Shown: positions 217-13,718, counted from the stretch's first letter. The stretch: DNA of 64,000 bases from Candidatus Tayloriibacteriota bacterium (GCA_039934295.1 JBDTMN010000004.1:4840-68839), one strand, 5' to 3'. Translations and numbers: made by a program. Notes: a model not told the origin generated them from the sequence alone.

Positions 217-1062
217 ATGTTACATGCTAAATGTTACAAGCTACGTGTTACATTTTATTCAATGGCTATCGCAAACACAATTGCATATAGTTTGATAGGT
301 GGCATCATTCCCGCCTTGATTTGGCTTTGGTTTTGGCTTAAGGAAGACCATCATCCCGAGCCCAAACGCCTCATCATCTACGCATTCCTCGCGGGCATGC
401 TCATGGTGCCCTTGGTTATTCCATTTCAGCAATATGTGCAGGCCACGATTTTTCCCGGAGATATCTCGTCTCCGAGTCTTTTTCACGGACCAACTGTCTT
501 CACTCCCTTCGTTCCCCTTCTCACACGCCTATTTCCTATGCAAGTTTGGCTTATCATTTTGTGGGCGGGACTCGAAGAGCTTTTCAAATTTATTGCGGCC
601 TATTTTGTCGTCTTGAGGAGAAAAGACGACAATGAGCCGGTGGACAAAATTATTTATCTTATAACAGTGGCCTTGGGCTTCTCCGCGCTCGAAAACGCCC
701 TTTTCATATTCAATCCCCTCTTTGACGGCAATTATAGTTTGAGTTTTATTACCAGCAACCTGCGCTTCGTGGGAGCTACCCTCTTGCACACTATCTGTTC
801 TGCCTCAATTGGAGTTGCACTCGGCCTTGCCTTCTACAAGAGCCGTTTATCAAAGTTCCTCCACCTGTTAGGCGGATTTGCCGTGGCTCTCGCCTTGCAT
901 ACTTCCTTTAATTTATTTATAATAAACAGCAAGGATGAGATCAACTTCGCAGTCTTCTATTTTGTCTGGCTCTCGATTATTATTCTCCTTCTCTTTTTTG
1001 AAAAAATTAAAAGCGTCATTAACATAAATGCGGCTCATAGCGAAAAAGCATCTTCGCAATGA
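217..1062 (+). CDS. prsW: PrsW-family intramembrane metalloprotease (probable true start at ATG 262, MAIANT...)
   Basis: Polytopic membrane protein with a GLEELFKFIAAY (EExxK) motif, GFSALENALF, and a HTICSASIGVALG FxxxH-like motif. Confidence 0.55.
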   Translation: MLHAKCYKLRVTFYSMAIANTIAYSLIGGIIPALIWLWFWLKEDHHPEPKRLIIYAFLAGMLMVPLVIPFQQYVQATIFPGDISSPSLFHGPTVFTPFVPLLTRLFPMQVWLIILWAGLEELFKFIAAYFVVLRRKDDNEPVDKIIYLITVALGFSALENALFIFNPLFDGNYSLSFITSNLRFVGATLLHTICSASIGVALGLAFYKSRLSKFLHLLGGFAVALALHTSFNLFIINSKDEINFAVFYFVWLSIIILLLFFEKIKSVININAAHSEKASSQ

Positions 1063-1075
1063 GTTACCTAAAAAA

Positions 1076-1537
1076 ATGAAAGATAGAAGATCATTTTTCG
1101 AACGTCTAACCGGCTCTGTCCATGTTGACGAAATGGAAGAAGAGGCTCTGGAAACGCGAAAGGTGCCCCGCAGTGACTGGAAAGAAGAGACCGAAGCGGA
1201 TAGCGACGGTCAGCTTACCGTTGATGTGTACCAAAATCCAACCGACATCATCATTAGAACGATGGTGGCAGGAGTGCGACCGGAAGATTTGGATATTTCC
1301 ATAACGCGAGAAATGGTGACAATCAAGGGAAAACGGGAATCCGGCCGAGAGATATCCGAGCAGGATTATTTTTTCAAAGAGCTCTATTGGGGAACATTTT
1401 CGAGAACGATTCTCCTTCCTCAAGAAGTGGAAGTTGAGGATGCGGAAGCCACGGAGAAATTTGGACTCTTGACACTGCGATTGCCGAAAATAAATAAAGA
1501 GAAGCAAACGAAGCTCAAGGTGAAGTCGAATACGTAA
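1076..1537 (+). CDS. Hsp20/alpha-crystallin small heat-shock protein (ORF track start 1028 overlaps prsW; ATG at 1076 preferred)
   Basis: Alpha-crystallin domain: LTVDVYQNPTDIIIRTMVAGVRPEDLDISITREMVTIKGKRE ... GTFSRTILLPQEVEVEDAEATEKFGLLTLRLPK. Confidence 0.8.
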   Translation: MKDRRSFFERLTGSVHVDEMEEEALETRKVPRSDWKEETEADSDGQLTVDVYQNPTDIIIRTMVAGVRPEDLDISITREMVTIKGKRESGREISEQDYFFKELYWGTFSRTILLPQEVEVEDAEATEKFGLLTLRLPKINKEKQTKLKVKSNT

Positions 1538-1643: not shown

Positions 1644-2255
1644 TTACGGTACCATATCGGCGAACACTACCAGCCGTTTACTGTAGCTTTTTTTTGATTT
1701 ATCCCAATCGCCCACGCAGGTAACAAGATTAAGATGCACGCCAACTTCGGACTTAAAAACCTCCGGCGCATAGGCGTCTTTATCATACTCTCGACTTTCT
1801 TTCACTTCAAAGGAGACAACCTTGCCCTCGCCGTCTTCAACGTATATTTTGTCTCCTTTGCGCAATCTGTCTAAATTATCGAATATCGCCGCAATACCGT
1901 TTTTCCAGCCCCAATGACCCGCGATGACGGCACTACCTTTCTCCCCTGGGAGTGTTCCTAGAGAAAACCAGGCAACGTGAAGAGGGTCGTCAGGCGCCTC
2001 CATAGCGCCATCCGGCGTAAGACCGACAGTTCCGACTTCAACATCAACATTGATGCTTGGAATCTTCAGGCGCGTAGGTTTGATTAAAGTTGACTGAACG
2101 GTTTTTTCGTTACTGTCAACTTTGCTCTCCTGATGCAGAAATGGAACTAGGAAAAGCGCGGACACTGCAATTAGAATTATTGAAAATATTTTTTTTCCTG
2201 TGGCTGTATTCATTGCAATCATTTTCTTCATTATACTCCAAAAATCCGGTCCCAA
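1644..2255 (-). CDS. Sortase (transpeptidase) with N-terminal membrane anchor; likely start at MKKMIAMN (~2228)
   Basis: N-terminal TM helix. His-containing AVIAGHWGW. TLxTC-like active-site motif HLNLVTCVGDWD. Paralogous to the C-terminal domain of the 2335..4839 protein. Confidence 0.65.
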   Translation of the reverse strand: MGPDFWSIMKKMIAMNTATGKKIFSIILIAVSALFLVPFLHQESKVDSNEKTVQSTLIKPTRLKIPSINVDVEVGTVGLTPDGAMEAPDDPLHVAWFSLGTLPGEKGSAVIAGHWGWKNGIAAIFDNLDRLRKGDKIYVEDGEGKVVSFEVKESREYDKDAYAPEVFKSEVGVHLNLVTCVGDWDKSKKSYSKRLVVFADMVP

Positions 2256-2334
2256 AAAATGGCGGAACCTGTTTATTTACCTTCCTATTCGATTTGAGGA
2301 CTCCGACGTCGAGAGACCTGTTTCCACCCCCCCC

Positions 2335-4893
2335 CTAATTTGGCGACGCGTCCTCATTTCCAGTAATTGGAAACTGCACACCCGACTGCTTTGAGAGAAT
2401 ACTGTTCAACCTGCCTAACGAAATAGGCCCAAAAAATCCTGTCGGGGGCAAAATAGCGTTCGCCGTTTGCCAAGAGACAACCGCAGACCTTGTAATGGGG
2501 CCAAAATAGCCGGTCGGAGTGGGAATGTTGAGAAAATGATTGGCGATAAGAAATTTTTGGAGGGCCACAACATCGTCTCCAGTACTCCCGATTGTAAGGC
2601 TTCGTGTGAACGTGAACGGCGACCCTAGGCTTACCCCTTGCGGAGCTATCCCCACGGGGCTTATGGCCGGTGGGACTATGGCAACTGAATTCGGCACAAG
2701 GTCGGTAAATATCACCAATCGTTTTGTGAAGTCTTGTATGGATTCGTCCCAAGAACCAAGAAGACAGGTGATGATGTTGAGGTGGATGCCACCGTCGGAA
2801 GAAGAAAAAACATCGCTCGCATCAGCATCTGATTTATAGATGCGAATTTCTCTGACCGCAAAAGTAAGTGTTTTTCCTTTTTCATCTACAACAGTGAGCT
2901 TGTCCCCTTCCACCATTTGAATCAATTTGTTGAAAACTTCCGCTTTCCCGTCCAAAAGGAAACCGGTGTGACCGTCAATAACGGCGCTACCAACTCCCCC
3001 AATGCGTGCGCCTAGATTGAACCATCCAACCTCACCATAGCCCGATGGCACATCCATCAAACCTCCCGTCGTCAAGCCAACCGGCACAATTGGAGCATCA
3101 ATATTGAGATTCGGAATCTTGAGACGTCCTATAGTAGGAAGGGTACTACCGGTGGAAGGCAGTGACGGAGCCGGTTCGCTAACCGGTGGCTGATTACCTA
3201 TAGTAAAAAAAAACAGAAGGAGAAAGAGCGCCGAGCCCAAAAAGATGAACTGAAGCAATCTTTTTTCCTTTTTCCTTATCGCCCAAATCGCGAAGAGAGT
3301 CGCGAGTAAGACAAACGCAATGAGGATGACCAGAGGGGCATCCGAATTATTGTTGGAAGCTGGATTTATTGCTACGTCAAACAGCACAGGCGCTGTCTTA
3401 TCGTCATTATTTGCAAAATGAGGAAATTTCACCAAATTGGGAGACGCGACGACAACCGTCGTAAGGGCGTAATCAATGGCAGTCAAACCGTTTCCACTGC
3501 CGTCCGCTGTGGCCGTGACCGTGCTCACGCTGTTGTCGGAAACATGCATTGTGCAGGTGTAGACCCAGCTTTCCCCGGTGTCGAGCAAGCTGTTTTCATT
3601 GAAATCGCCGGAAGGGACAGAGAGAGTATTGCACGTGTTATCTGCAACGCTTACGTTTGAAAGCGCAACCGTGCCAGGATTAGTTGCAACATACGTATAG
3701 GTAACATCCCCTCCGCCAATAGGCAAAACAAACCTGTCCGGAGTTTTTATAACGCTAATTAATGGAGCCGGAAATGAAACGCCGACGGTGACTTTTGCAA
3801 CCGCCGAATCAATCGCGGACAAACCATTGGAAAAACCGACTGCAGTCCCAATATTTGTGGTGGTCTGCGTAACTCTCGCAGTGCATCGGTACGTCCATTT
3901 CTCCTTGATATCAAGTTTAGAATCGCTATTCGTGTCGCCGGAAATGAGATTGACCGAGGCGCACTTGTCATCACCTACCGTAACATTCCCAATCGCAACT
4001 TTCCCGACATTCAAAACTGTGTACGTGTAGGTGACCGATCCAGGACCCTCGGGCAAGGAGAGAGGGCTTGGCACTTGCAAAATGGAAATAAGCGGAGGGG
4101 TAGCAATAGTGTCTGCCGGTTGACTTGACGTAGGAGGAGGCGCGCACGTCGCTCTGGTAATGATGTTGCCATTCAAACTAACCGTCCCCTTTTCCGCAAG
4201 GACCCGTCCCTCCACGACTGCTCCAGTTGAAAGTGAAGCAGTGGTCAAAGCTAAAATATTTCCTCTTAAGATTGATTGTTCTCCGAGGTTCACCGAATCG
4301 CCGACAGCCCAAAAAACGTTGCAAGCTTGGGCCCCGCCCGCAAGAACCACCTCGCTTCTCCGCGCGGTTGCGAGAGTCGAAGTAGTTTTAAATATAAAAA
4401 CTGCGTTGGGGTCGCCTTTGGCATCGAGCGTGAGCTTACCATTTATCGCAAAAGTGCCGTCTGCGGATGCATATATTCCGGGAGTTTGAATTGTTCCGCC
4501 AAGCTCTGAAGGCACGGTTGCGCCTTGCGTTCGCCCAAGGATGTCTCTCGCCGCTCTCGCCAAGTCCGCTTTTGCAGAGGCGACCGGAACATCTGCCACA
4601 TGCAAAGTCCCGATAACGGATCCGTGCCCGAATCCGGAGAGCACAGTTCCGGGACCAACGCCGACATCACCATTTATTACAGAGTCGCCCGTATTTGTAA
4701 TTGAAATGCCCGCTAACACCGCAAAATTGTCGGCTGTTTCCAGATTTACCGGAGCTCTATAGTCTGCAGACGCCACAGTTCCGCTCATCAAAAAAACGAG
4801 TAGCGAAAGTATGAGGCGTGCGTCAAAATATTTTCTCATTTTTTTATTCAACCTTATTTCCAAACTCTTCGTCAGCCACATCCAATTCTGCAT
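2335..4893 (-). CDS. Multidomain surface protein. Layout: signal peptide, DUF3494 (ice-binding-like) domain, two DUF11-type repeats, TM with KR-rich stop-transfer, second TM, sortase catalytic domain, PG_binding_1 domain. Probable true start at MRKYFDAR (4839). Possible substrate-sortase fusion or frameshift artefact.
   Basis: ADNFAVLAGISITNTGDSVINGDVGVGPG matches the DUF3494 N-terminus. TYTYTVxNxG...VxDDKC repeats occur twice. ...LVILIAFVLLATLFAIWAIRKKEKR is followed without a stop by LLQFIFLGSALFLLLFFF. The sortase motifs are AVIDGHTGF and HLNIITCLLGSWD. C-terminal DDVVALQKFL...GYFGPITRSAV is PG-binding. The fusion point lies in poly-A/poly-T tracts. Confidence 0.6.
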   Translation of the reverse strand: MQNWMWLTKSLEIRLNKKMRKYFDARLILSLLVFLMSGTVASADYRAPVNLETADNFAVLAGISITNTGDSVINGDVGVGPGTVLSGFGHGSVIGTLHVADVPVASAKADLARAARDILGRTQGATVPSELGGTIQTPGIYASADGTFAINGKLTLDAKGDPNAVFIFKTTSTLATARRSEVVLAGGAQACNVFWAVGDSVNLGEQSILRGNILALTTASLSTGAVVEGRVLAEKGTVSLNGNIITRATCAPPPTSSQPADTIATPPLISILQVPSPLSLPEGPGSVTYTYTVLNVGKVAIGNVTVGDDKCASVNLISGDTNSDSKLDIKEKWTYRCTARVTQTTTNIGTAVGFSNGLSAIDSAVAKVTVGVSFPAPLISVIKTPDRFVLPIGGGDVTYTYVATNPGTVALSNVSVADNTCNTLSVPSGDFNENSLLDTGESWVYTCTMHVSDNSVSTVTATADGSGNGLTAIDYALTTVVVASPNLVKFPHFANNDDKTAPVLFDVAINPASNNNSDAPLVILIAFVLLATLFAIWAIRKKEKRLLQFIFLGSALFLLLFFFTIGNQPPVSEPAPSLPSTGSTLPTIGRLKIPNLNIDAPIVPVGLTTGGLMDVPSGYGEVGWFNLGARIGGVGSAVIDGHTGFLLDGKAEVFNKLIQMVEGDKLTVVDEKGKTLTFAVREIRIYKSDADASDVFSSSDGGIHLNIITCLLGSWDESIQDFTKRLVIFTDLVPNSVAIVPPAISPVGIAPQGVSLGSPFTFTRSLTIGSTGDDVVALQKFLIANHFLNIPTPTGYFGPITRSAVVSWQTANAILPPTGFFGPISLGRLNSILSKQSGVQFPITGNEDASPN

Positions 4894-5317
4894 CGCGCTT
4901 TGTCATCTGAACACGCCCGTCGATGTGGTTAGGTGGTGAGTACATCGTGTAGATTTTTAAAGATTCGCCTCCGGTATTTACGAAGTTATGCTTTGTTCCC
5001 GGAGTTACCACTACCACATCTCCCGATTCGAAGGGTTTCCTCACTCCGTCCAATAGTGACACGCCATATCCTTGGAAAAGAAAAAGAGTTTGTTCGGTGT
5101 GAGGATGAGTCTCCTCTCCGATATCTTCTCCGGGCTTTATGTCCATCACAACAAGCTGGCTATTCTTTCCTGTGAAAATGACTCTTCTAAAAGCCGTGTT
5201 GTCCAGCGTTTCTTTTATTATATTTCCGGAGTGTGACATTGTGGAAGGTAAGATGAAGAACTCGTGAAAGCAAGCGCGCAACTTATATGCCTCAAACGGC
5301 AACTGAAATAGGGACAA
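4844..5317 (-). CDS. Cupin-domain protein (likely true start MSHSGNII near 5239)
   Basis: Cupin_2 barrel signature: VVMDIKPGEDIGEETHPHTEQTLFLFQGYGVSLLDG...GDVVVVTPGTKHNFVNTG. Confidence 0.5.
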   Translation of the reverse strand: MSLFQLPFEAYKLRACFHEFFILPSTMSHSGNIIKETLDNTAFRRVIFTGKNSQLVVMDIKPGEDIGEETHPHTEQTLFLFQGYGVSLLDGVRKPFESGDVVVVTPGTKHNFVNTGGESLKIYTMYSPPNHIDGRVQMTKRDAELDVADEEFGNKVE

Positions 5318-5372
5318 TGTAGCCTCGCACAGAGACGGACCGAGGATTCATCCCTTAAGAATTTATGCGGAG

Positions 5373-6914
5373 CTAAATTGATTTCTTCTTTCGAGTAGTG
5401 TTGAGCAGGAGCAAAATCGCAACGAGACCAACCGAGATAATGATATTCCAAGGGACAGTATCATCAGGAGCAATTCCAGTATTTGGCAGGGTAGGTGTGC
5501 CACTAGTTGGCAAGTCCACTACTAGAGCACCCACAGGAACAGTCACCTCTGCCGTATCAGAAACTGTTCGGCCGTTCGCTTCACCAGTGGCGGTAACAAT
5601 GTTCGTGGTAGTTTGATTGAGTGTAGTTGCACAGCGATAAATCCAAGTTTCGTCGTTATCAAGCAATGAGTCCTCATCTGCGTCACCAGAAACAAAGCTC
5701 ACCGAAACGCATTTATCGTCAACGACTGTCACAGTACTCAACGAGAGTGGGCCGGGATTGGTAACCGTGTAGGTATATGTAACCAGTCCGGGTCCTGCAG
5801 GCAGTGCCGAAGGAGTCGGAAATTTTTCCACATTGATACGAGGTGAGGAAACAGACCTTCCTCCTCCGCTTGAACCACCACTTCGTGGAGGTGGGATGTC
5901 ATTGTTATTTACCGTACATATTGCTACATCACCTCCGGCAAGGGTGATAGTACTGCCATCTACCGCAGAACCTCCATTATTGACACAGCTGAATTCTGAC
6001 GCACTATATCCTGAAGGACCTGATTCGGAAAGCGTATAGGTGTCGGCATTGAAAACTCCGCCGTTAACCAAAGGAGTGGTTCCGCTCAAATTTGTCGGAC
6101 TGCCACCGGTGCCGGTCGCTTGGAGAGTCCAATCGGTAGGAGATGCATTTCCACCATCGTCATTCGTGACAGTCTTTGTGAGAGTAAGAAGCGGACTTGA
6201 AGCGCAAACAGGCACTGTAATCGTGTCATTAGACGCAGTGACAGTTCCTCCAAATGCCAGAGCCCTTCCTGTCCAGCCCACAGTATCACCTATGGTAATA
6301 CCCGCGGCATCAATAACAGTTCCGACAAATGTTGAGTTTGCCCCAAGCGTCGTGGCCGATGTAGGAATCCAGAAGACATCGCAAGCTGAAGCACCACCCG
6401 TTAATAGAACAATAGAGTTTGCTGTTGAATCAAGTGCTCCGTCCATCCTGAAGATGTATGTTCCTGCGCCGTTTAGAGTGATAGTTGATCCTCCACCGAT
6501 GTTGACAGCGTTGTCAAAACAATAAATTCCGGGTGTGTACTCGGTAGTAGTTGCGCCGAATGTGGGAACGTGCGTAGTTTCAGATGCAAGATCAATTGGT
6601 CCAGAAAAAGTTAAGTCGCATGGGGTTTGATTATTTAGATTGACTAGAGCAACTCCTTGGGCCGTTCCTGCATTGCTGTAGACGGTGTCTGCCACATGCG
6701 TAGAACCGCTAACCGTCGCCGCCGTTCCTGTTGTATAACCAAGATCTCCAAAAATACTGTTTCCGCCGAGGTTGCTAAAAGTATCAGAAAGAATACCAAA
6801 CGAATTGGTCGCCCCAAGATTTGGCGTGGTCGCCGCAAAAGCCGGAATGGCTGACCCAGCCGAGAAAAAGGCGAGCGCTAACAGGACTACACCCACTTTC
6901 TTAAATTTTTTCAT
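5373..6914 (-). CDS. LPXTG-anchored surface protein with N-terminal DUF3494 (ice-binding-like) domain, Ig/prealbumin-like middle and one DUF11 repeat; sortase substrate
   Basis: Signal peptide MKKFKKVGVVLLALAFFSAGSAIPAFA. GATNSFGILSDTFSNLGGNSIFGDLGYTTG resembles DUF3494. LVTYTYTVTNPG...VVDDKC repeat. C-terminal LPNTG followed by a hydrophobic stretch and RKKKSI sorting signal. Confidence 0.65.
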   Translation of the reverse strand: MKKFKKVGVVLLALAFFSAGSAIPAFAATTPNLGATNSFGILSDTFSNLGGNSIFGDLGYTTGTAATVSGSTHVADTVYSNAGTAQGVALVNLNNQTPCDLTFSGPIDLASETTHVPTFGATTTEYTPGIYCFDNAVNIGGGSTITLNGAGTYIFRMDGALDSTANSIVLLTGGASACDVFWIPTSATTLGANSTFVGTVIDAAGITIGDTVGWTGRALAFGGTVTASNDTITVPVCASSPLLTLTKTVTNDDGGNASPTDWTLQATGTGGSPTNLSGTTPLVNGGVFNADTYTLSESGPSGYSASEFSCVNNGGSAVDGSTITLAGGDVAICTVNNNDIPPPRSGGSSGGGRSVSSPRINVEKFPTPSALPAGPGLVTYTYTVTNPGPLSLSTVTVVDDKCVSVSFVSGDADEDSLLDNDETWIYRCATTLNQTTTNIVTATGEANGRTVSDTAEVTVPVGALVVDLPTSGTPTLPNTGIAPDDTVPWNIIISVGLVAILLLLNTTRKKKSI

Positions 6915-7204
6915 AGTTTTTTACTATAAATATTTATTTTACTATATTTGGACATCAATATTCGTTCTTATTGAATTATAGAAATTATTAAGCGAGCGAT
7001 TCAACAGCGTCGCTTTCAATCAATTGTAGCACATCTGTATGATTCATTATACTCGTTCATACAAAATGAAAAAGAGCAGGTCTGTGGATAACCAAATTTT
7101 CCAATTTTCTAGCCAAATAAGCCAAATTTCGCGCTTAGCCTGCAGTTCGATTCTGGGTACTACTTAGCAAATAAAAATAACCCCGAAAGCTGGGGTAGTT
7201 TTTA

Positions 7205-7370
7205 TTTGTGCCGAGGCCCAGATGCCCTATCGGATCGGTCACGACTCTCGGCTCGTCGTCACTCGCCTCGGTCGCGACCCCAGCTCGCGATTTCGGCTAC
7301 TGCCGAAATAACGCTCCGCTTTTCGATTCTGGACGCGAAACAAGCAGTTGTTTCGCTACCTCGGCACAAA
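7205..7370 (-). ncRNA. tRNA-like element: 166 nt bounded by 12-bp terminal inverted repeats identical to the tRNA-Phe acceptor stem, with an unrelated structured interior
   Basis: TTTGTGCCGAGG (7205-7216) pairs with CCTCGGCACAAA (7359-7370). On the minus strand it reads GCCGAGG-TA-GC...TCTGGG-CCTCGGC-A, sharing the first 11 nt and last 15 nt of tRNA-Phe. The interior has perfect hairpins (GCGAAACAA-CTGC-TTGTTTCGC; TTTCGGC-AGTA-GCCGAAA) and no anticodon or T arm. Confidence 0.3.
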
Positions 7371-7401
7371 TGAAAACAGCCCAAAAAGGCTGTTCATTTT
7401 G

Positions 7402-7474
7402 TGCCGAGGCCCAGAATCGAACTGGGGACCTATTCCTCTTCAGGGAAGCGCTCTACCGACTGAGCTACCTCGGC
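7402..7474 (-). tRNA. tRNA-Phe (anticodon GAA)
   Basis: Minus strand reads GCCGAGG-TA-GCTC-AGTCGGTA-GAGC-G-CTTCC-CTGAAGA-GGAAT-AGGTC-CCCAG-TTCGATT-CTGGG-CCTCGGC-A. Acceptor, D, anticodon and T stems all pair. Loop CUGAAGA has U33, anticodon GAA and G37. No encoded CCA. Confidence 0.8.
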
Positions 7475-7592
7475 CTAAAACATCCGCAACGGATGTTCGC
7501 CCTAGGGCATATCCCAACATCAACAAACTAACTCTTTTAAGTTAGCACATTTTCAGTGAATACGAAAGAATGTCGGAGCAGGAGGCTCTATT

Positions 7593-7859
7593 TTACTGAT
7601 TGAGTAATTCTTTGTACTGGTCAATAATATTTGAACTTTTCGCAGATGGACTTTCATCTCCAAACGCGCCAAGCAAACTTGAAATATACATTTGGGCAAA
7701 ATAGACGCCTCCAATCGACAGGAAAATAATAAGAATCCAGTATGAAGCGCGCATAATGTTCGAACGTCTTTGCGAACGCCTCATACCTTTCAAAATTTCA
7801 TTATTCTCTTCCGAGAGTTTATACGTCTTCTCGAGCAATTCTTTTTCTTCTGGTAGCAT
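7593..7859 (-). CDS. Small hypothetical membrane protein
   Basis: 88-aa ORF with one TM helix (ASYWILIIFLSIGGVYFAQMY). No recognisable family. Confidence 0.35.
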   Translation of the reverse strand: MLPEEKELLEKTYKLSEENNEILKGMRRSQRRSNIMRASYWILIIFLSIGGVYFAQMYISSLLGAFGDESPSAKSSNIIDQYKELLNQ

Positions 7860-7871
7860 AATAATTTTTTA

Positions 7872-8519
7872 TTATTTCACTTTCGCAATTTCTAGCGCTA
7901 ATTTTTCTGAAATTGTTTTTAAAGTTATTACATCTTTCCCCGCAAAGTTTTCCTTTGAAATTAAAGCATTTAGATCGTCGCAGATTTGATTGAAAGTAAG
8001 CGAATCTAATTGTCCTAATTTTTCTCGTTTATCACCCCAAGTAAAAGAGTCAAGTTTGTGCAAAATTTCCCTTACTTTTTTGTTTTTTTCAAATTGCGGA
8101 GGATACTGTTGAAGAATACGGTGCAATCTTTCAGAGTAAGTATCTCTATCCCGACTTTCTAATTCAACTGGAGGAATGTACAGCATTCTTTTAGGATGTC
8201 TCAATAGTCGTATTGATTTTGCTACTATTTGTTGTATGCGGGAAGGTCCAACTGCGAAATGCTCTCCAATTTCTTCTAAAGTTTCTCCTTGAAGAAATCT
8301 TCGCCTGATTATTTCTTTTGATCTTTCGTCCGGCAATGTCTCGATAAGTTGTTCAATGTCATCCCGTAATTGCGGATCGGAGGGAGTGAATTTTTTTCCT
8401 AATTCAGCGTCCTGTAGCATTTCAACAAAAGCTTCTCTTTCTGTAGCAGATACGGCATCTTCTTTCTTTATACGCTCAAATTTTTCCATATATGGACAAT
8501 TTTTAACACGACTATTCAC
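7872..8519 (-). CDS. Sigma-70 region-4 (HTH) domain protein
   Basis: LPDERSKEIIRRRFLQGETLEEIGEHFAVGPSRIQQIVAKSIRLLR is a sigma-70 r4 helix-turn-helix. This family is common in CPR genomes. Paralogous N-terminus to the 58692..59723 protein. Confidence 0.6.
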   Translation of the reverse strand: MNSRVKNCPYMEKFERIKKEDAVSATEREAFVEMLQDAELGKKFTPSDPQLRDDIEQLIETLPDERSKEIIRRRFLQGETLEEIGEHFAVGPSRIQQIVAKSIRLLRHPKRMLYIPPVELESRDRDTYSERLHRILQQYPPQFEKNKKVREILHKLDSFTWGDKREKLGQLDSLTFNQICDDLNALISKENFAGKDVITLKTISEKLALEIAKVK

Positions 8520-9081: not shown

Positions 9082-12000
9082 CTACCTCCACGCTTCACTC
9101 ACCGCCCCCAACAAATATTTGAAAGGCAGGGTGAGGAATTCAAAGAAACTTAGATTTGATTTTGGCGGAACAAAGGAGCTGTCTGTTGAGCCTTTAGTGG
9201 GATCAGGTGGGTCTACGACTGGAGGAACAGCGACGGTGACACTCTTTGCGCTCGTTCCTCCTGCTCCACTACACGAAAGAGTGAAAGTGGCTTGGCTTTG
9301 AATAGGGCCGGTGGAAAGCGTTCCTGATGTCGCTTGATTTCCTGCCCAACTGCCTGCTTCCGCTCCGCCAGAAACTGACCCTGTGCAGATGCTGGCATTT
9401 GTAGATGTCCAGCTAATATCTACCGATTCACCCGGAAGAATGGTAGGGCCTGTTGCAACACCTTCTGGCTCTGGCTTGGTAGATAGCGAGATGGTGGGAG
9501 GCGGAGTTGAACTACCTGAAGGGGAAGATGGGGTAGTCGGATTGTTCGGAGTTACTGAACTAGCTTTTGTCACTATAAGATTAGCGGACGCAGTTTTGCT
9601 CCCGCCCTCACCTTCACACGTTACAGTATAGGTGATGGTGGTCGGAACGGTAAAACGAACTGACTTAGTTCCGCTTGTTGCTCCATTAGCCCGCAATCCT
9701 GTAACAGCGCATGAAGTAGCCTTATTGGAAGTCCACGAAACAGTTGCCGCTTCTGTGGTTGTGATGGTGCTTGGGGAGATGGAGAGGGAGACGGAGAAAA
9801 TATTCTGGTCTGGTGGAGTGTCTTTGGTAAATGTCGCTATCACCGCTTTGCCTGCATCCATCTTGAGAAAGCAGGAGCCGATTCCCGAGCATGCACCTGT
9901 CCATCCCGAGAAGGTGGAGCCGGCAAAAGGAACCGCCGTGAGGGTGATAGGCGCATTTTGAGGGAACAAAACATCGCATACTTCTTTGTTACAGAGAACT
10001 TGACCTAAGCCGGTTCCTTGATTTGTGATGGTGAGAGAGAATACGCCTGGAGTTATGGTCAAATACAGACGGTTGCTCTTTCCCGTCGTAGGGTGAGTGA
10101 CTTGGATGGAATAATTGCCCACCGGGACGTTGGGAACAAATTGGATTGTTTTTCCTCCATCGGTGCTTGGAAGTGTTTGAACGACTGATACGCCGGACGA
10201 TTGGTTGGTAAGAGTAAGAATATTCCCAGCTGGCGCAAAGCGGACGCCCGCAATAGTGACGGTCGCGTTTGAGGGAGCAGATCTCTCCGGAGAGACTGAT
10301 GTGAGATAGGGTGAGACTTCGCCGACAATAATGAGAGCGTTTGTGGTGTTCGGAGGCAGAACCCCAATTACTCTGGAATTCTGGAAACCGCCCAAAGTAA
10401 CTTGGGTTAGAATTCCGCGATATGCTCCGGCAAACATTTTTTTCGGCTCGAACACGACTGTCACAGTAAATTCTGCAGTAGTGCCGGCAGGAATTAGATA
10501 GAAATCGCCTTGGTCCGTTGTTCCCACCGATGAATATGTCTCTACTCCGCCCATATAATTTTGTCCGTCAACTGATACCGCATAGGAAGAAAACGCATCC
10601 CGTTTTGATATGAGCTGGTCACGGCTTCCGGCCGATATCGAAACTTTAAATCGAGTGGTGAGTCCCGCTTCGCCTCCGTCTGAAGGGTCGTATAATAGTG
10701 AGATGGTTGAGGCACCTACAATCCCTGCGGACGGTAGGACGGTGTCAGGTGAATCCACCAAATTGAAATATCCTGTCTCGCCGGTAATGCCTGAATTCAC
10801 GTCCCGTATTGAAATCTTATATTGACCGGAATTCAGCATCGTAAATGTCCATCCACCAATAACCTGATTATATGAGTAGACTCTTCCTGCAGTCCACACG
10901 AATCGATTTCCAATATAAGTTTGGTCCCAGACTTCAGGATTTGATATTGGCCAATTTTGCCCGTCAGTGCCAGATATTGAGATACCTGTTGCTCTCCCCG
11001 GAGTGCCGGTCCAAGAAATAGTGGTTGTCGAGCCAGCAAGAACAGTGTCCCCCTTCTGCGGTAAAGTGACAACTATAGGATCGAGCACACCCATATGCAA
11101 AGAATTGGTTTTTGCGTCGTTGATTACAAACTGCTCTATATCGTTATTTGGTCGAAATGTAAGCAACTTGGCAAAATAAGTATCCCTGAGAAGATTTTCC
11201 TCATTGAAGGAGCCTGAAATAACAAAGCGAGCAGTCGTATTTGGAGGAATAATGTAATAGGGCCCGGCAAAATCTTCGACTCCATAAAGGGGCACGTATT
11301 GAATCCCCAAATCTTGATTATTATTTGTTCCCGACTGAACCAAGATAGTTCCTACCAAAGAGACTGCGAACGATGAGCTGTAGCGAGATTTGAAAAGCTC
11401 TAAAGCGGACTCGGTCGTCGTGACGTCAACCGTAAATGTAGCTTCTGTCGCGCTCAATGAAGAGCTCGCGACCGAAACGGTAACTCCGGTAAGCGGTATT
11501 GGAACGCGTCCGCAAGCGCCCTTAAAACTTGAAAGATGAGTGGCATATTCACTGTCTGAAGCGAAGGGTAATGTGATGTTCACGGGTACAAATGTCTGAC
11601 CCATTTTTTGAGCGAAGTCGCTCGAGTTTGCGTATTTGGCATATTGATAAAATTTGATTCGGAGATATTCGCGCAGTATTTCTTTATTCACGTTCAAATA
11701 AGGAAAGTCGTCTATCATCGCAAACATATCATTCAACGATGAAGGCTGTAGAAATATATTTCGGGCAATTTGATAATACGCTTGCCTATAAGAAGGTTGC
11801 GTACTTGCGGGCAAGTCGTCTAGTAGTCGCTCCGTTTCGCTTGATGAGGGATCCGAGTCCATCGAATAACAACCGAGAGACAAGTCAAATCCATGAGGAA
11901 TAACCTTCGTCTTGTCGGTTGTTTTATCCACTCCCCACTCCTCATTATGTAAAGCCCCCATATCATACACAGCCAGAAAATCCGTAAACAGCATGAATTT

Positions 12001-12807
12001 TAGAGTTGAATCCCTGTCAAAATAGACCGTTGTAGAAACTTGGGTCGTATTATTCGTGACGAGAGCGGATATCAAACGGTCAAACGAACTTGCGTACCAC
12101 CCGTTCGAGCCTTCCGATTCATACAGCATTGGGTTCATGTTGAACTCCGTGGTAAATGGTATCTGATCATCAAGCTCTGCCGGTCTCTGAATGATCATGT
12201 ATCGATATGTTCTTCCGTTATATCCGGAATCCGGCGTTATGAATGTCACATTCGCGAAGCCGATAATATCGGCAGTTGGAACTCCATATTTTCTGAAAAT
12301 TTTATGAATAATATATTCTCTCAAGTTGACATTAAGTTTCCCGCTGAAGCCGTAATCTCCTCCTCCGAGATAGTAGTCGTTTCCCGCGTCACATTCCGGA
12401 ATCATGCGGAATTTTTGATACTGCAATTGTGCGGACCCCGGATAGGTGCTCACACCCGTAAAAAGTTCCTTTGGAACCCCCTGGCTGTTGAATTTATCAA
12501 AACTCAAATTAAGCATGGGCGGGTCGCATACTCCTCTCATGTGACCTTTCTTCTCATATTTTATTTTCCAATCTTTGATTTTTATTCCAAGACTGGTGTA
12601 CTCAACTAATTTTCCATCACGATTCGGAGCGAATTCATCAAGTGACAATGTCTTTCCTTGGGTATCTAGTGTGAGATTTCGAATCGGATAGAGAGGTGTC
12701 TGCGCATAAGAGAAAGAGGGTGCAACAAAACCCGTGGCCACAAGTAATGCGACCGATGAGAAAACAATGTATCGTTTTTTCATTACGTTTATCTTAGAGT
12801 TAATCAA
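9082..12807 (-). CDS. Large secreted CotH-kinase-family protein with Ig-like repeats and an InlB-B-repeat-like domain
   Basis: Signal peptide. CotH-like core: YIIHKIFRKYGVPTADIIGF...YRYMIIQRP; LFTDFLAVYDMGALHNEEWGVD...IPHGFDLSLG. Cys-containing repeat VLCNKEVCDV...ITLTAVPFAGSTFSGWTGACSGIGSCFLKMDAGKAVIATFT. Several T/S-rich Ig-like repeats at the C-terminus. Confidence 0.6.
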   Translation of the reverse strand: MINSKINVMKKRYIVFSSVALLVATGFVAPSFSYAQTPLYPIRNLTLDTQGKTLSLDEFAPNRDGKLVEYTSLGIKIKDWKIKYEKKGHMRGVCDPPMLNLSFDKFNSQGVPKELFTGVSTYPGSAQLQYQKFRMIPECDAGNDYYLGGGDYGFSGKLNVNLREYIIHKIFRKYGVPTADIIGFANVTFITPDSGYNGRTYRYMIIQRPAELDDQIPFTTEFNMNPMLYESEGSNGWYASSFDRLISALVTNNTTQVSTTVYFDRDSTLKFMLFTDFLAVYDMGALHNEEWGVDKTTDKTKVIPHGFDLSLGCYSMDSDPSSSETERLLDDLPASTQPSYRQAYYQIARNIFLQPSSLNDMFAMIDDFPYLNVNKEILREYLRIKFYQYAKYANSSDFAQKMGQTFVPVNITLPFASDSEYATHLSSFKGACGRVPIPLTGVTVSVASSSLSATEATFTVDVTTTESALELFKSRYSSSFAVSLVGTILVQSGTNNNQDLGIQYVPLYGVEDFAGPYYIIPPNTTARFVISGSFNEENLLRDTYFAKLLTFRPNNDIEQFVINDAKTNSLHMGVLDPIVVTLPQKGDTVLAGSTTTISWTGTPGRATGISISGTDGQNWPISNPEVWDQTYIGNRFVWTAGRVYSYNQVIGGWTFTMLNSGQYKISIRDVNSGITGETGYFNLVDSPDTVLPSAGIVGASTISLLYDPSDGGEAGLTTRFKVSISAGSRDQLISKRDAFSSYAVSVDGQNYMGGVETYSSVGTTDQGDFYLIPAGTTAEFTVTVVFEPKKMFAGAYRGILTQVTLGGFQNSRVIGVLPPNTTNALIIVGEVSPYLTSVSPERSAPSNATVTIAGVRFAPAGNILTLTNQSSGVSVVQTLPSTDGGKTIQFVPNVPVGNYSIQVTHPTTGKSNRLYLTITPGVFSLTITNQGTGLGQVLCNKEVCDVLFPQNAPITLTAVPFAGSTFSGWTGACSGIGSCFLKMDAGKAVIATFTKDTPPDQNIFSVSLSISPSTITTTEAATVSWTSNKATSCAVTGLRANGATSGTKSVRFTVPTTITYTVTCEGEGGSKTASANLIVTKASSVTPNNPTTPSSPSGSSTPPPTISLSTKPEPEGVATGPTILPGESVDISWTSTNASICTGSVSGGAEAGSWAGNQATSGTLSTGPIQSQATFTLSCSGAGGTSAKSVTVAVPPVVDPPDPTKGSTDSSFVPPKSNLSFFEFLTLPFKYLLGAVSEAWR

Positions 12808-12923
12808 TACAATTATTACACTTTTTTAAAATCATTGAAAGAGGAGTTTATCCCCAGCGCATAGAAGAATATGGATCATAGGTTATAGATTTCCGCTTCT
12901 CGTTTCATGATAGAATCCTAAAT

Positions 12924-13718
12924 GTGATGAAAAAATTGTTTTTTGGACTGATGTGTATCTTTGCTTTCATCGGACTTGTCATGGTCGTTGGATTTGTTGC
13001 AATTCAGCTCCGATGGACCAAGACAGAGGGAGTGGTTGACGCACAACACGACTACTTCAAGGAAAAAATCGCGAAGAATCTCGAGTGGGAAAAAAGCGAA
13101 GAGTGGAAAGCTCTCAAGGTGGCAATTTTGAAGGATAAGGAGGATATTTTGAAAGCATCGGAGTCGAGCGGAGTCGGAACAAGGCTCATTATCGCGCCCC
13201 TCGTCGTCGAGCAACTTCGACTCTACGAAAGCAATCGAGAGTTATTTAAAGAATTTTTTTCGCCCTTGAAAATGCTGGGGAGCCAAAATCAGTTCTCGTG
13301 GGGAGTAATGGGGATTAAAGAGGAGAGCGCAAGGCAGATTGAGCAAAATTTGAAAAACGCGAATTCACCTTTCTACTTGGGACCCGCGTACGAGCACATT
13401 CTCGATTTTACATCAGACAGTCCCGATTCGGAGCGCTTTCAGAGACTCACAGATGATGCGAGCCGTTACTATTCCTATCTCTATGCGGGACTCTACGAAA
13501 AGCAACTGATTGCGCAATGGGACAAAGCCGGAATCCCCATTCATGACAGGCCGGAAATTGTTTTCACACTTTTCAACATTGGATTTTCCAATTCTCGCCC
13601 GCATCCAAACCCCTCGGTTGGCGGAGCGGAAATTAGGTTTGCCGGAAAAGAGTACAGCTTCGGCGGACTTGCTTTTGAATTTTACTATTCGGACGAATTG
13701 CCAGAGTTTGAGAAGTAG
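12924..13718 (+). CDS. Hypothetical membrane-anchored protein
   Basis: 264-aa ORF with N-terminal TM helix. No recognisable family. Divergent from the CotH gene. Confidence 0.45.
   Translation: MMKKLFFGLMCIFAFIGLVMVVGFVAIQLRWTKTEGVVDAQHDYFKEKIAKNLEWEKSEEWKALKVAILKDKEDILKASESSGVGTRLIIAPLVVEQLRLYESNRELFKEFFSPLKMLGSQNQFSWGVMGIKEESARQIEQNLKNANSPFYLGPAYEHILDFTSDSPDSERFQRLTDDASRYYSYLYAGLYEKQLIAQWDKAGIPIHDRPEIVFTLFNIGFSNSRPHPNPSVGGAEIRFAGKEYSFGGLAFEFYYSDELPEFEK

Follow-up and report, generated by a model that had tools for sequence, protein, structure and literature searches.

An in-frame fusion of a sortase substrate with a sortase and a peptidoglycan-binding domain in the putative surface-protein locus of a Candidatus Tayloriibacteriota bacterium

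Textbooks treat sortases and the LPXTG proteins on which they act as separate partners. A gene in a 64,000-nucleotide (nt) stretch of DNA from a Candidatus Tayloriibacteriota bacterium (GCA_039934295.1 JBDTMN010000004.1:4840-68839; the whole stretch is hereafter the window, and positions are counted from its first letter) raises the question whether the two can also be made as one chain and, if so, what such a chain would do. The gene (2335..4839, minus strand, like the other genes of its locus) is an open reading frame (ORF) of 834 amino acids (aa) and a stop codon, in which Pfam domains of a surface protein are followed by those of a sortase and of a peptidoglycan-binding protein. The simplest history compatible with its sequence is the fusion of two genes that had been neighbours in a surface-protein locus dependent on sortase, and both the architecture and this origin are considered highly probable. 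The complete explanation favoured here, in which the fused gene encodes a membrane-hairpin polyprotein that is subsequently processed, is given a probability of about 0.55.

From the N- to the C-terminus the product consists of a signal peptide, an Ice_binding domain, two CLIPPER_2 domains, a transmembrane (TM) segment, the basic cluster RKKEKR, a second TM segment, LPSTG, a sortase domain, PG_binding_1 and FPITG. The signal peptide (aa 1-25, 4765..4839; MRKYFDARLILSLLVFLMSGTVASA followed by DY) was recognised from a hydrophobic stretch at aa 5-27 and a following A-x-A site, with cleavage predicted between VASA and D. The Ice_binding (DUF3494) beta-helix head (aa 41-228, 4156..4719) was matched by Pfam PF11999 with 170.4 bits, and the two stalk domains (aa ~249-466, 3442..4095) by PF24346 in two stretches with 56.7 bits. 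The latter family, CLIPPER_2, is the current name of DUF7507, a predicted isopeptide-bond stalk domain (PMC12617251); DUF11 scored 24.2 bits, just under the Pfam cut-off. The two repeats are 52% and 39% identical to the CLIPPER_2 domain encoded by the neighbouring gene 5373..6914, a canonical sortase substrate.

The region behind the stalk (aa 467-502, 3334..3441; SPNLVKFPHFANN...LFDVAINPASN) holds, as judged by a regex scan and alignments, a decayed sorting pentapeptide. An intact [LF]PxTG was absent before the first TM segment (TM1) in the regex scan, FPHFA, LFDVA and NPASN standing there instead. BLASTP pairs the LPNTG of the 5373..6914 substrate with LFDVA, and MAFFT pairs the LPNTG of fusions without TM segments, described below, with L..ANN. 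NPASN (aa 492) was considered as a class-B-like NPxTN signal and was dropped because it is not conserved in an orthologue of the fusion, P0002, which is also described below.

TM1 (aa 503-521, 3277..3333; Kyte-Doolittle peak 2.98), apparently the former sorting-signal helix, and the basic cluster behind it fall opposite the sorting signal when the fusion is aligned to the neighbouring 5373..6914 substrate. The basic tail of a sorting signal ends the protein; here, the chain extends for 307 residues past the TM1 region and RKKEKR. This predicted cytoplasmic loop (aa 522-527, 3259..3276) is encoded by AGGAAAAAGGAAAAAAGA and is directly followed by a TTG codon (L528), a candidate internal start, with which the second TM segment (TM2; aa 528-548, 3196..3258; hydropathy 2.37), the putative sortase membrane anchor, begins. 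The DNA at the junction reads GGAAAAAGGAAAAAAG, with A5 and A6 tracts, and is followed by a run of nine Ts inside the TM2 codons (A9 on the plus strand, 3205..3213), which encodes LFFF and is the longest A/T run in the window.

On the predicted outer face, LPSTG (aa 560-564, 3148..3162) precedes sortase strand beta-1 by 8 residues and aligns with LPNAG in P0002. The sortase catalytic domain (aa 573-715, 2695..3123) was matched by Pfam PF04203 with 60.3 bits against a cut-off of 26.6, and the triad was assigned by alignment to His624 (2968..2970), Cys692 (2764..2766) and Arg707 (2719..2721), residues that are invariant across 11 fused homologues. The motif of the Cys strand, HLNIITC, aligns with the Cys strand of PDB sortases (phmmer). 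An AlphaFold2 (AF2) model of aa 548-834 showed a sortase barrel core with a predicted local distance difference test (pLDDT) score above 90 over residues ~568-717; in Foldseek it matched sortase A, C and E crystal structures with a probability of 1.00 and E values of 4e-11 to 1e-9, the top match being A. oris SrtC-1. Judged by sequence and model, both the catalytic triad and the sortase fold are intact, and the invariant His, Cys and Arg together with the modelled fold support the prediction that the fused enzyme is active.

Behind the catalytic domain, PG_binding_1 (aa 753-805, 2425..2583) scored 35.7 bits in Pfam against a cut-off of 23 and appears as three helices in the AF2 model (pLDDT 56-76). 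The C-terminal FPITG (aa 823-827, 2359..2373) is followed only by NEDASPN and the stop codon; P0002 has LPNAG and FPDVG at this place. The sortase-PG_binding_1 module is flanked by two canonical-looking pentapeptides, LPSTG (aa 560) and FPITG (aa 823). LPPTG at aa 797 was rejected as a sorting motif, as it belongs to the conserved P-x-G-[YF]-F-G repeat of PG_binding_1. A run of nine Gs (2327..2335, minus strand) begins exactly at the stop codon of the fusion gene.

Most of this architecture had been read earlier from the window without database searches. That sequence-only reading had described a hydrophobic segment with RKKEKR, a second TM helix, a complete sortase domain and PG_binding_1 in 2335..4839, and Pfam and hydropathy recovered every element that it listed at the coordinates it gave. 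Its domain calls (DUF3494, DUF11-type, Sortase and PG_binding_1) were borne out by the profile searches, with the refinement that the stalks are best described as CLIPPER_2; a sortase fold expected at residues ~560-720 was seen in the model, and the triad on which the call depended is present. The Cys motif had been given as TLxTC and is corrected to HLNIITC. The statement that a clear LPXTG is lacking holds for the region before TM1 and fails for the protein as a whole, since LPSTG after TM2 and FPITG near the C-terminus had both been missed.

The same reading had located the junction in A/T homopolymer tracts with nine Ts, as is seen in the DNA, and had left three explanations open: a real fusion, a phase-variable switch and an assembly frameshift. 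TM1, the basic loop and TM2 share one frame, and the other two frames stop within ~25 codons without encoding a sortase anchor. The Logan assembly of run SRR26386573 contains an identical 834-aa ORF with the same neighbours, and an identical protein is held by NCBI under the label 'MAG: ice-binding family protein [Candidatus Taylorbacteria bacterium]'. The orthologue P0002, from another Patescibacteria metagenome-assembled genome (MAG), is 50% identical over 99% coverage and has the same four domains. It likewise runs through the junction in frame, as TM-basic-TM, its longest homopolymer there is A5, and it was recovered in two assemblies. Its locus is syntenic, with an Ice_binding substrate, a plain sortase, the fusion and a cupin. 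Because of the shared frame, the Logan copy and an orthologue without long runs, the architecture is not accounted for by a homopolymer error or by phase variation, and frameshifting and phase variation were rejected as causes of the fusion following three-frame translation, inspection of the orthologue junction DNA and a listing of homopolymers. We judge the gene to be a genuine in-frame fusion and not a frameshift or homopolymer artefact, so that of the three explanations the evidence favours the first, also in view of ten further fusions of the same form.

In the P0002 locus (L001), the fusion gene is followed by a gene for a 953-aa FG-GAP/CLIPPER_2/PG_binding_1 protein (10574-13435); PG_binding_1 recurs in these loci as a wall-attachment module.

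Substrate-sortase fusions recur in Patescibacteria and take two forms, which together comprise at least 30 further distinct fused proteins. In the first, to which the window protein belongs, two CLIPPER_2 domains are followed by a TM-basic loop-TM hairpin and then by sortase and PG_binding_1. Besides P0002, ten proteins or fragments of this hairpin form were found (in JGI, ENA, Logan and NCBI), with strongly divergent loop sequences; the pentapeptide before TM1 is degenerate in four of these ten, and the motif after TM2 is kept in all ten. A scan of genome collections with a two-sequence alignment matched only the P0002 genome and one fusion of the other form. That second form, without TM segments, was gathered by an initial search for homologues, by a profile search against 1.84 billion representatives and by two scans of collections, and comprises at least 20 distinct proteins (e.g. 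P0006, P0007 and P0014), annotated 'ice-binding family protein'. Here, Ice_binding, SpaA_2 and/or CLIPPER_2 domains lead directly into LP[NKS][TSA][GA], behind which come a linker of 9-80 residues without a TM segment and a plain sortase. A pentapeptide stands ahead of the sortase domain in 22/22 fusions of the first set, compared with chance-like matches in 2/55 plain or N-terminal-PG sortases.

A gene for an Ice_binding-PG_binding_1 protein lies directly upstream of the TM-less fusion gene in four of the six TM-less loci examined, and its product may be a wall-bound partner or acceptor. These upstream genes (L003, 6684-7979; L005, ~6657-7992, split; L007, 3673-4851; L015, 2505-3683) encode products of ~390-430 aa with an Ice_binding head, ending in PG_binding_1.

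In a neighbour-joining tree of the sortase domains, fused and free enzymes are interspersed; as the tree carries no support values, it serves only as a hint that the fusion may have happened more than once. The sequence-only reading had called a substrate-sortase-PG-binding fusion unusual. This holds for the literature, in which nothing was found on a sortase combined with DUF3494 or on natural substrate-sortase fusions, nor on sortases carrying their own sorting signal (the searchable literature being incomplete), and it does not hold for Patescibacteria, in which such fusions recur.

What the two halves may have been before fusion is indicated by two loci from a metagenome scan, L033 and L025, in which the unfused state is seen: a substrate gene that bears a cell wall sorting signal is followed by a separate sortase gene. 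L033, on an 856-kb contig, encodes in this order an Ice_binding-SpaA_2-CLIPPER_2 protein, a cupin, a plain sortase, a protein with two CLIPPER_2 domains and a 399-aa sortase. The protein with two CLIPPER_2 domains ends in a normal sorting signal, and the gene of the 399-aa sortase (4813-6009) overlaps its end in another frame. This sortase consists of a TM anchor, KFPSTG, the catalytic domain, PG_binding_1, ILPNTG, ~45 residues, a TM segment and RRR; its equivalent in L025 (4596-5828) has LPITG and LPYAG. The C-terminal half of the fusion is colinear with the L033 sortase (43% identity over 249 aa, including both domains), with FPITG opposite LPNTG. The first protein of L033 (735-2582) ends in '...SFPNTGFPPKGI' directly before the stop codon, that is, in a sorting pentapeptide with no TM segment or tail behind it.

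A search with the L033 enzyme yielded 469 proteins at E ≤1e-10, and features were scored on the best 120 of these 469 (P0360-P0479). Among these 120, a C-terminal TM segment is present in 118 and an LPxT[GA]-type motif after PG_binding_1 in 115; since motif and TM segment are nearly universal, this PG_binding_1-tailed family looks like one that carries its own cell wall sorting signal. About 30-45 aa separate the motif from the TM segment, behind which stands a basic tail. A pentapeptide on the N-side was found in 110/120, ~24 residues (median) before beta-1 and within a conserved linker, GWKFP...AYSDIRDPGGIPQGLP. It has the form F-P-x-[T/V]-G; ~85% begin with F, and 17% carry Val at position 4, the would-be scissile position. 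By comparison, 140 genuine sorting signals from homologues of the passenger have Leu at position 1 in 82%, and T, A or S at position 4 in 98%, with Val in 0.7%. The LPNAG of P0002, 4 residues from beta-1, and the LPSTG of the window both match the profile of genuine signals, and both proteins are without the conserved GWKFP linker and without the C-terminal TM segment. An initial claim that no stand-alone sortase has a linker pentapeptide was withdrawn, as L025, L033 and the whole PG_binding_1-tailed family have one. A word-index search with the C-terminal 307 aa recovered neither the query protein itself nor P0002 nor the L033-type family, so that absence from its results is uninformative.

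From these comparisons, the upstream half most probably derives from an LPXTG-type adhesin-like protein with a DUF3494 head, two CLIPPER_2 domains and a pentapeptide-TM-basic tail, and the downstream half from a member of the Patescibacterial TM-[FL]PxTG-sortase-PG_binding_1-LPxT[GA] family, which usually ends in a TM segment and tail. Loss of the stop/start junction would have joined the basic tail of the substrate to the anchor of the sortase, after which the pentapeptide of the substrate would have decayed.

Concerning the working of the product, its predicted topology obeys the positive-inside rule: the passenger lies outside, TM1, RKKEKR and TM2 form a tight hairpin, and the sortase and peptidoglycan-binding module again lie outside. 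Adhesin and enzyme would thereby be delivered 1:1 and side by side, PG_binding_1 holding the enzyme at the wall. Lying exposed ~11 residues above the membrane, LPSTG would then be cut between Thr563 and Gly564 (...SLPSTGSTLPTIGR... in the uncut form), either by the stand-alone sortase encoded at 1644..2255 or by another copy of the fused one; cleavage in cis is improbable, given a tether of eight residues. The passenger with its hairpin would be passed as acyl-enzyme to an amine of the wall or of lipid II, and the freed module, starting with Gly, would stay on the peptidoglycan, possibly fixed via FPITG. This wall-resident enzyme and the plain sortase would then also process the LPNTG protein of 5373..6914.

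Processing is supported by the LPx[TA]G that P0002 keeps at this position although the linker around it is otherwise not conserved, by the agreement of L at position 1 and of T or A at position 4 with the profile of genuine sorting signals, by the pentapeptide ahead of the sortase domain in all 22 fusions of the first set, by the motif after TM2 that the ten other hairpin fusions keep while the pentapeptide before TM1 is degenerate here and in four of them, and by the C-terminal pentapeptide that is retained at the homologous place despite the loss of the TM segment behind it. Taken by itself, the cleavage step at LPSTG is put at slightly below even odds. We tentatively raise a stronger version, itself rather unlikely, of a natural self-sorting polyprotein whose sortase-PG_binding_1 module would itself be a substrate of sortase: cleavage between Thr and Gly of LPSTG would separate the module from the membrane hairpin and couple the adhesin to the wall, and transpeptidation at the same place in FPITG would bind the enzyme covalently to the peptidoglycan. 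If true, a wall-resident sortase would be delivered 1:1 with its cargo, and the same logic would apply to the TM-[FL]PxTG-sortase-PG_binding_1-LPxT[GA]-TM family and to the TM-less passenger-LPXTG-sortase fusions, in which the sortase domain would replace the usual hydrophobic retention signal.

Several observations weigh against a processed polyprotein. Cleavage at LPSTG was deduced from conservation of the motif, and the closest subgroup comprises two sequences. It would leave a wall-linked product still bearing two membrane helices, for which we know of no precedent. In the AF2 model the LPSTG linker has a pLDDT of 55-63 and is not predicted to dock into the active site; in the model of a TM-less fusion, LPNTG has a pLDDT of 64-83, the linker is disordered and docking is again not predicted. 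As the pLDDT of the motif is only low to moderate, AF2 neither supports nor excludes docking. LPSTG lies 8 residues from beta-1, compared with the family median of 24, and the conserved linker is missing, for which reason its homology with the family motif is uncertain. With Val at position 4 in 17% of the family, compared with 0.7% of genuine signals, FPx[TV]G looks less like a cleavage site than like a pseudo-substrate or structural element.

The leading alternative, which we consider possible though unlikely, is that of an uncleaved bifunctional membrane protein, whose hairpin would permanently anchor both passenger and sortase and whose PG_binding_1 would tie the complex to the wall. The sortase would act on other proteins only, e.g. 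the LPNTG protein of 5373..6914, possibly linking it to the passenger, and LPSTG would represent the [FL]Px[TV]G typical of the family's linker, serving as a structural part or pseudo-substrate 'lid' and not as a cleavage site. The unusual composition of the family motif, with its F and Val, and its fixed distance from beta-1 in a conserved linker, as expected of a structural element, agree with this, and a decayed pentapeptide before TM1 would suit a passenger whose release from the membrane is no longer required. In class C sortases, an N-terminal lid occupies the active site. This lid and the N-terminal GYPSY motif, which is important for a pilin sortase (PMC4829219), provide parallels. However, the LPSTG and LPNAG of the window protein and P0002 resemble genuine signals and not FPx[TV]G, and they stand outside the conserved linker; a canonical LPSTG exposed near the membrane of a cell with two LPXTG-type sortases would be expected to be cut unless shielded; and in the AF2 model the linker has no confident position on the enzyme.

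An improbable alternative is that the gene gives two products or has a decaying passenger. Translation of the sortase half would begin chiefly at the internal TTG (codon 528), an in-frame codon at the start of TM2 that stands behind the purine-rich AAGGAAAAAAGA and has a Shine-Dalgarno-like AAGGA 8 nt before it. The passenger would be a relic on its way to a pseudogene, as its decayed sorting pentapeptide might suggest, or a plain membrane-anchored adhesin; slippage in the A tracts or in the T9 run, which is the longest of its kind in the window, could tune the product ratio, frameshifted chains stopping within ~25 codons as a passenger with a short tail. The domains of the passenger are nevertheless intact and score strongly (170 bits for Ice_binding, two CLIPPER_2), the in-frame fusion is kept in P0002 without homopolymers and in ten other hairpin fusions with different loops, and codons for Lys and Phe would produce A/T runs in any case. 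Finally, that a substrate gene ending after RKKEKR and a sortase gene were joined by an indel error or chimeric join is very improbable: the A5/A6 tracts, the following T9 and the origin from a MAG would allow for it, but one frame carries TM1, loop and TM2 while the others give stops and no sortase anchor, an independent Logan assembly yields the identical protein, P0002 is fused in frame by different DNA and itself occurs in two assemblies, and at least 30 other fused proteins come from many projects.

All individual parts of the processed polyprotein favoured here are known already; a description of their natural combination as substrate and sortase on one chain was not found in the searched literature. 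With the canonical sortase/LPXTG system the fusion shares the sortase fold, the His-Cys-Arg triad and an N-terminal membrane anchor of the enzyme, and the neighbouring substrate has the usual tripartite signal (LPNTG-TM-RKKKSI). It differs in that enzyme and substrate are placed on one chain through the TM of the signal and the anchor of the enzyme, in that the substrate pentapeptide is decayed, and in that pentapeptides stand before the catalytic domain and after a C-terminal PG_binding_1. The best NCBIfam class model for both sortases is class F (NF033748), a class characterised in Propionibacterium acnes according to a citation in PMC8225981; with 78 bits for the fused and 130.3 bits for the stand-alone enzyme against a cut-off of 166, both are rated as related to class F and outside its curated membership.

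The PG_binding_1-tailed sortases, annotated only as 'sortase' or 'LPXTG-site transpeptidase', share with the fusion the order TM anchor-sortase-PG_binding_1 and the pentapeptides between anchor and catalytic domain and a few residues after PG_binding_1; in L033 and L025 they are also encoded beside CLIPPER_2/Ice_binding substrates, a plain sortase and a cupin. In contrast, the fusion has no C-terminal TM segment and tail, ending 7 residues after FPITG, and has its LPSTG 8 residues from beta-1, an Ice_binding passenger and no conserved linker. The TM-less fusions carry the same Ice_binding and CLIPPER_2 passenger family (34-58% identical) and likewise a pentapeptide before an intact sortase, but are without membrane hairpin and PG_binding_1, and their LPXTG directly follows the last stalk domain.

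Class C sortases have membrane segments at both the N- and the C-terminus, as does the PG_binding_1-tailed family. Sortase-dependent pilus loci resemble the present one in that several sortase genes lie beside those of LPXTG proteins built of isopeptide-type stalks (SpaA_2, CLIPPER_2). A pilus hypothesis was nonetheless not adopted: a scan for the YPK pilin motif, the E-box and the DP[WFY] lid was negative in all three proteins (fusion, substrate and stand-alone sortase), and NCBIfam class C scores of 23.5-30.7 are far under the cut-off of 160.

The nearest conceptual relatives are engineered self-cleaving sortase-LPXTG fusions, such as the BISOP purification tag (PMC2901362), in which sortase and LPXTG are likewise on one polypeptide and cleavage frees a product starting with Gly. 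These tags are laboratory-made, soluble and cytoplasmic, usually in the order sortase-LPXTG-target, whereas the window protein is natural, predicted to be exported and membrane-tethered, and ordered passenger-(TM hairpin)-LPSTG-sortase, its self-cleavage being only putative. Fibrillar adhesins with CLIPPER/CLIPPER_2 stalks (PMC12617251) share an N-terminal putative binding head, tandem isopeptide-type stalks and a C-terminal attachment. Compared with these and with DUF3494 proteins, the anchor of the fusion is a hairpin plus enzyme module in place of a simple sorting signal, and its head is related to ice-binding proteins by fold family alone. The NCBIfam ice-binding equivalog NF045625, with a cut-off of 400, gave 83.8 bits for the fusion and 45 bits for the 5373..6914 substrate, so that the earlier description 'ice-binding-like' is right as to the Pfam fold family and does not extend to a functional equivalog; 'ice-binding' is best taken here as a DUF3494 fold-family label only.

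Uncultured Patescibacteria thus repeatedly encode enzyme and substrate on one chain, a natural counterpart to engineered sortase tags, in proteins whose architecture is hidden by database labels such as 'ice-binding family protein' or 'sortase'. The fusions raise the questions whether a sortase may act on a motif of its own chain, whether a sortase may be anchored to the wall and not to the membrane, and what takes the place of the hydrophobic retention signal; they also expose a large, previously unnoticed sortase family that appears to combine a peptidoglycan-binding domain with a sorting signal of its own. Attachment to host cells is the presumed way of life of Patescibacteria, and the present loci, in which two sortases and a conserved cupin accompany a beta-helix head on isopeptide-type stalks, are candidate host-attachment loci. 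The sequence-only reading had suggested that the locus may encode the main surface-attachment apparatus of the cell, which is a possibility only; at least one other large surface protein (9082..12807) is encoded in the window.

The locus is transcribed from the minus strand in the order 5373..6914, 4844..5239, 2335..4839 and 1644..2255. The first gene (5373..6914) encodes the 513-aa canonical substrate, with a signal peptide, Ice_binding (Pfam, 89 bits), SpaA_2, one CLIPPER_2, LPNTG (nt 5475..5489), a TM segment and RKKKSI, as determined with Pfam and hydropathy; no other ORF of the 64-kb window has a complete C-terminal sorting signal. The sequence-only reading had rightly taken it for an LPNTG-anchored protein with a DUF3494-like N-domain. 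It had further given the fusion the same domain order, which is similar without being identical (SpaA_2 and one CLIPPER_2 as against two CLIPPER_2), and had made it the next ORF, overlooking the intervening Cupin_2 gene.

The Cupin_2 gene (4844..5239, minus strand; 131 aa from the ATG at 5239; Pfam 51.6 bits) has its stop codon 5 nt ahead of the ATG of the fusion gene. Homologous cupins are encoded in L001 (13445-13933), L015 (1878-2402) and L033 (2801-3319), and the window cupin is 65% identical to that of L033, which is above the conservation of the surrounding surface proteins; among such sortase/adhesin loci, Cupin_2 is a conserved component. The L033 cupin carries an N-terminal TM segment.

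The last gene (1644..2255, minus strand; Pfam 83.7 bits) encodes the stand-alone plain sortase, of 203 aa from the TTG at 2255 or 195 aa from the ATG at 2231, with a TM anchor and a linker without pentapeptide. At 47% identity to the fused sortase it is the paralogue that had been proposed. Behind the stop codon of the fusion gene, a terminator-like hairpin (2269..2248) overlaps the TTG at 2255, which makes the ATG at 2231, with GGAG upstream of it, the likelier start.

Directly downstream of the sortase locus and on the opposite strand, a gene for a PrsW-family intramembrane protease (217..1062, plus strand) overlaps the start of an Hsp20 gene (1028..1537, plus strand), and the same neighbours are present in the Logan contig. 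On the other side, a 215-aa protein with a match to sigma-70 region 4 only and without region 2 (7872..8519, minus strand) is encoded just beyond a tRNA-Phe gene (7401..7474), and a 1241-aa secreted or surface protein with weak CotH and InlB B-repeat matches (9082..12807, minus strand) is encoded near the locus.

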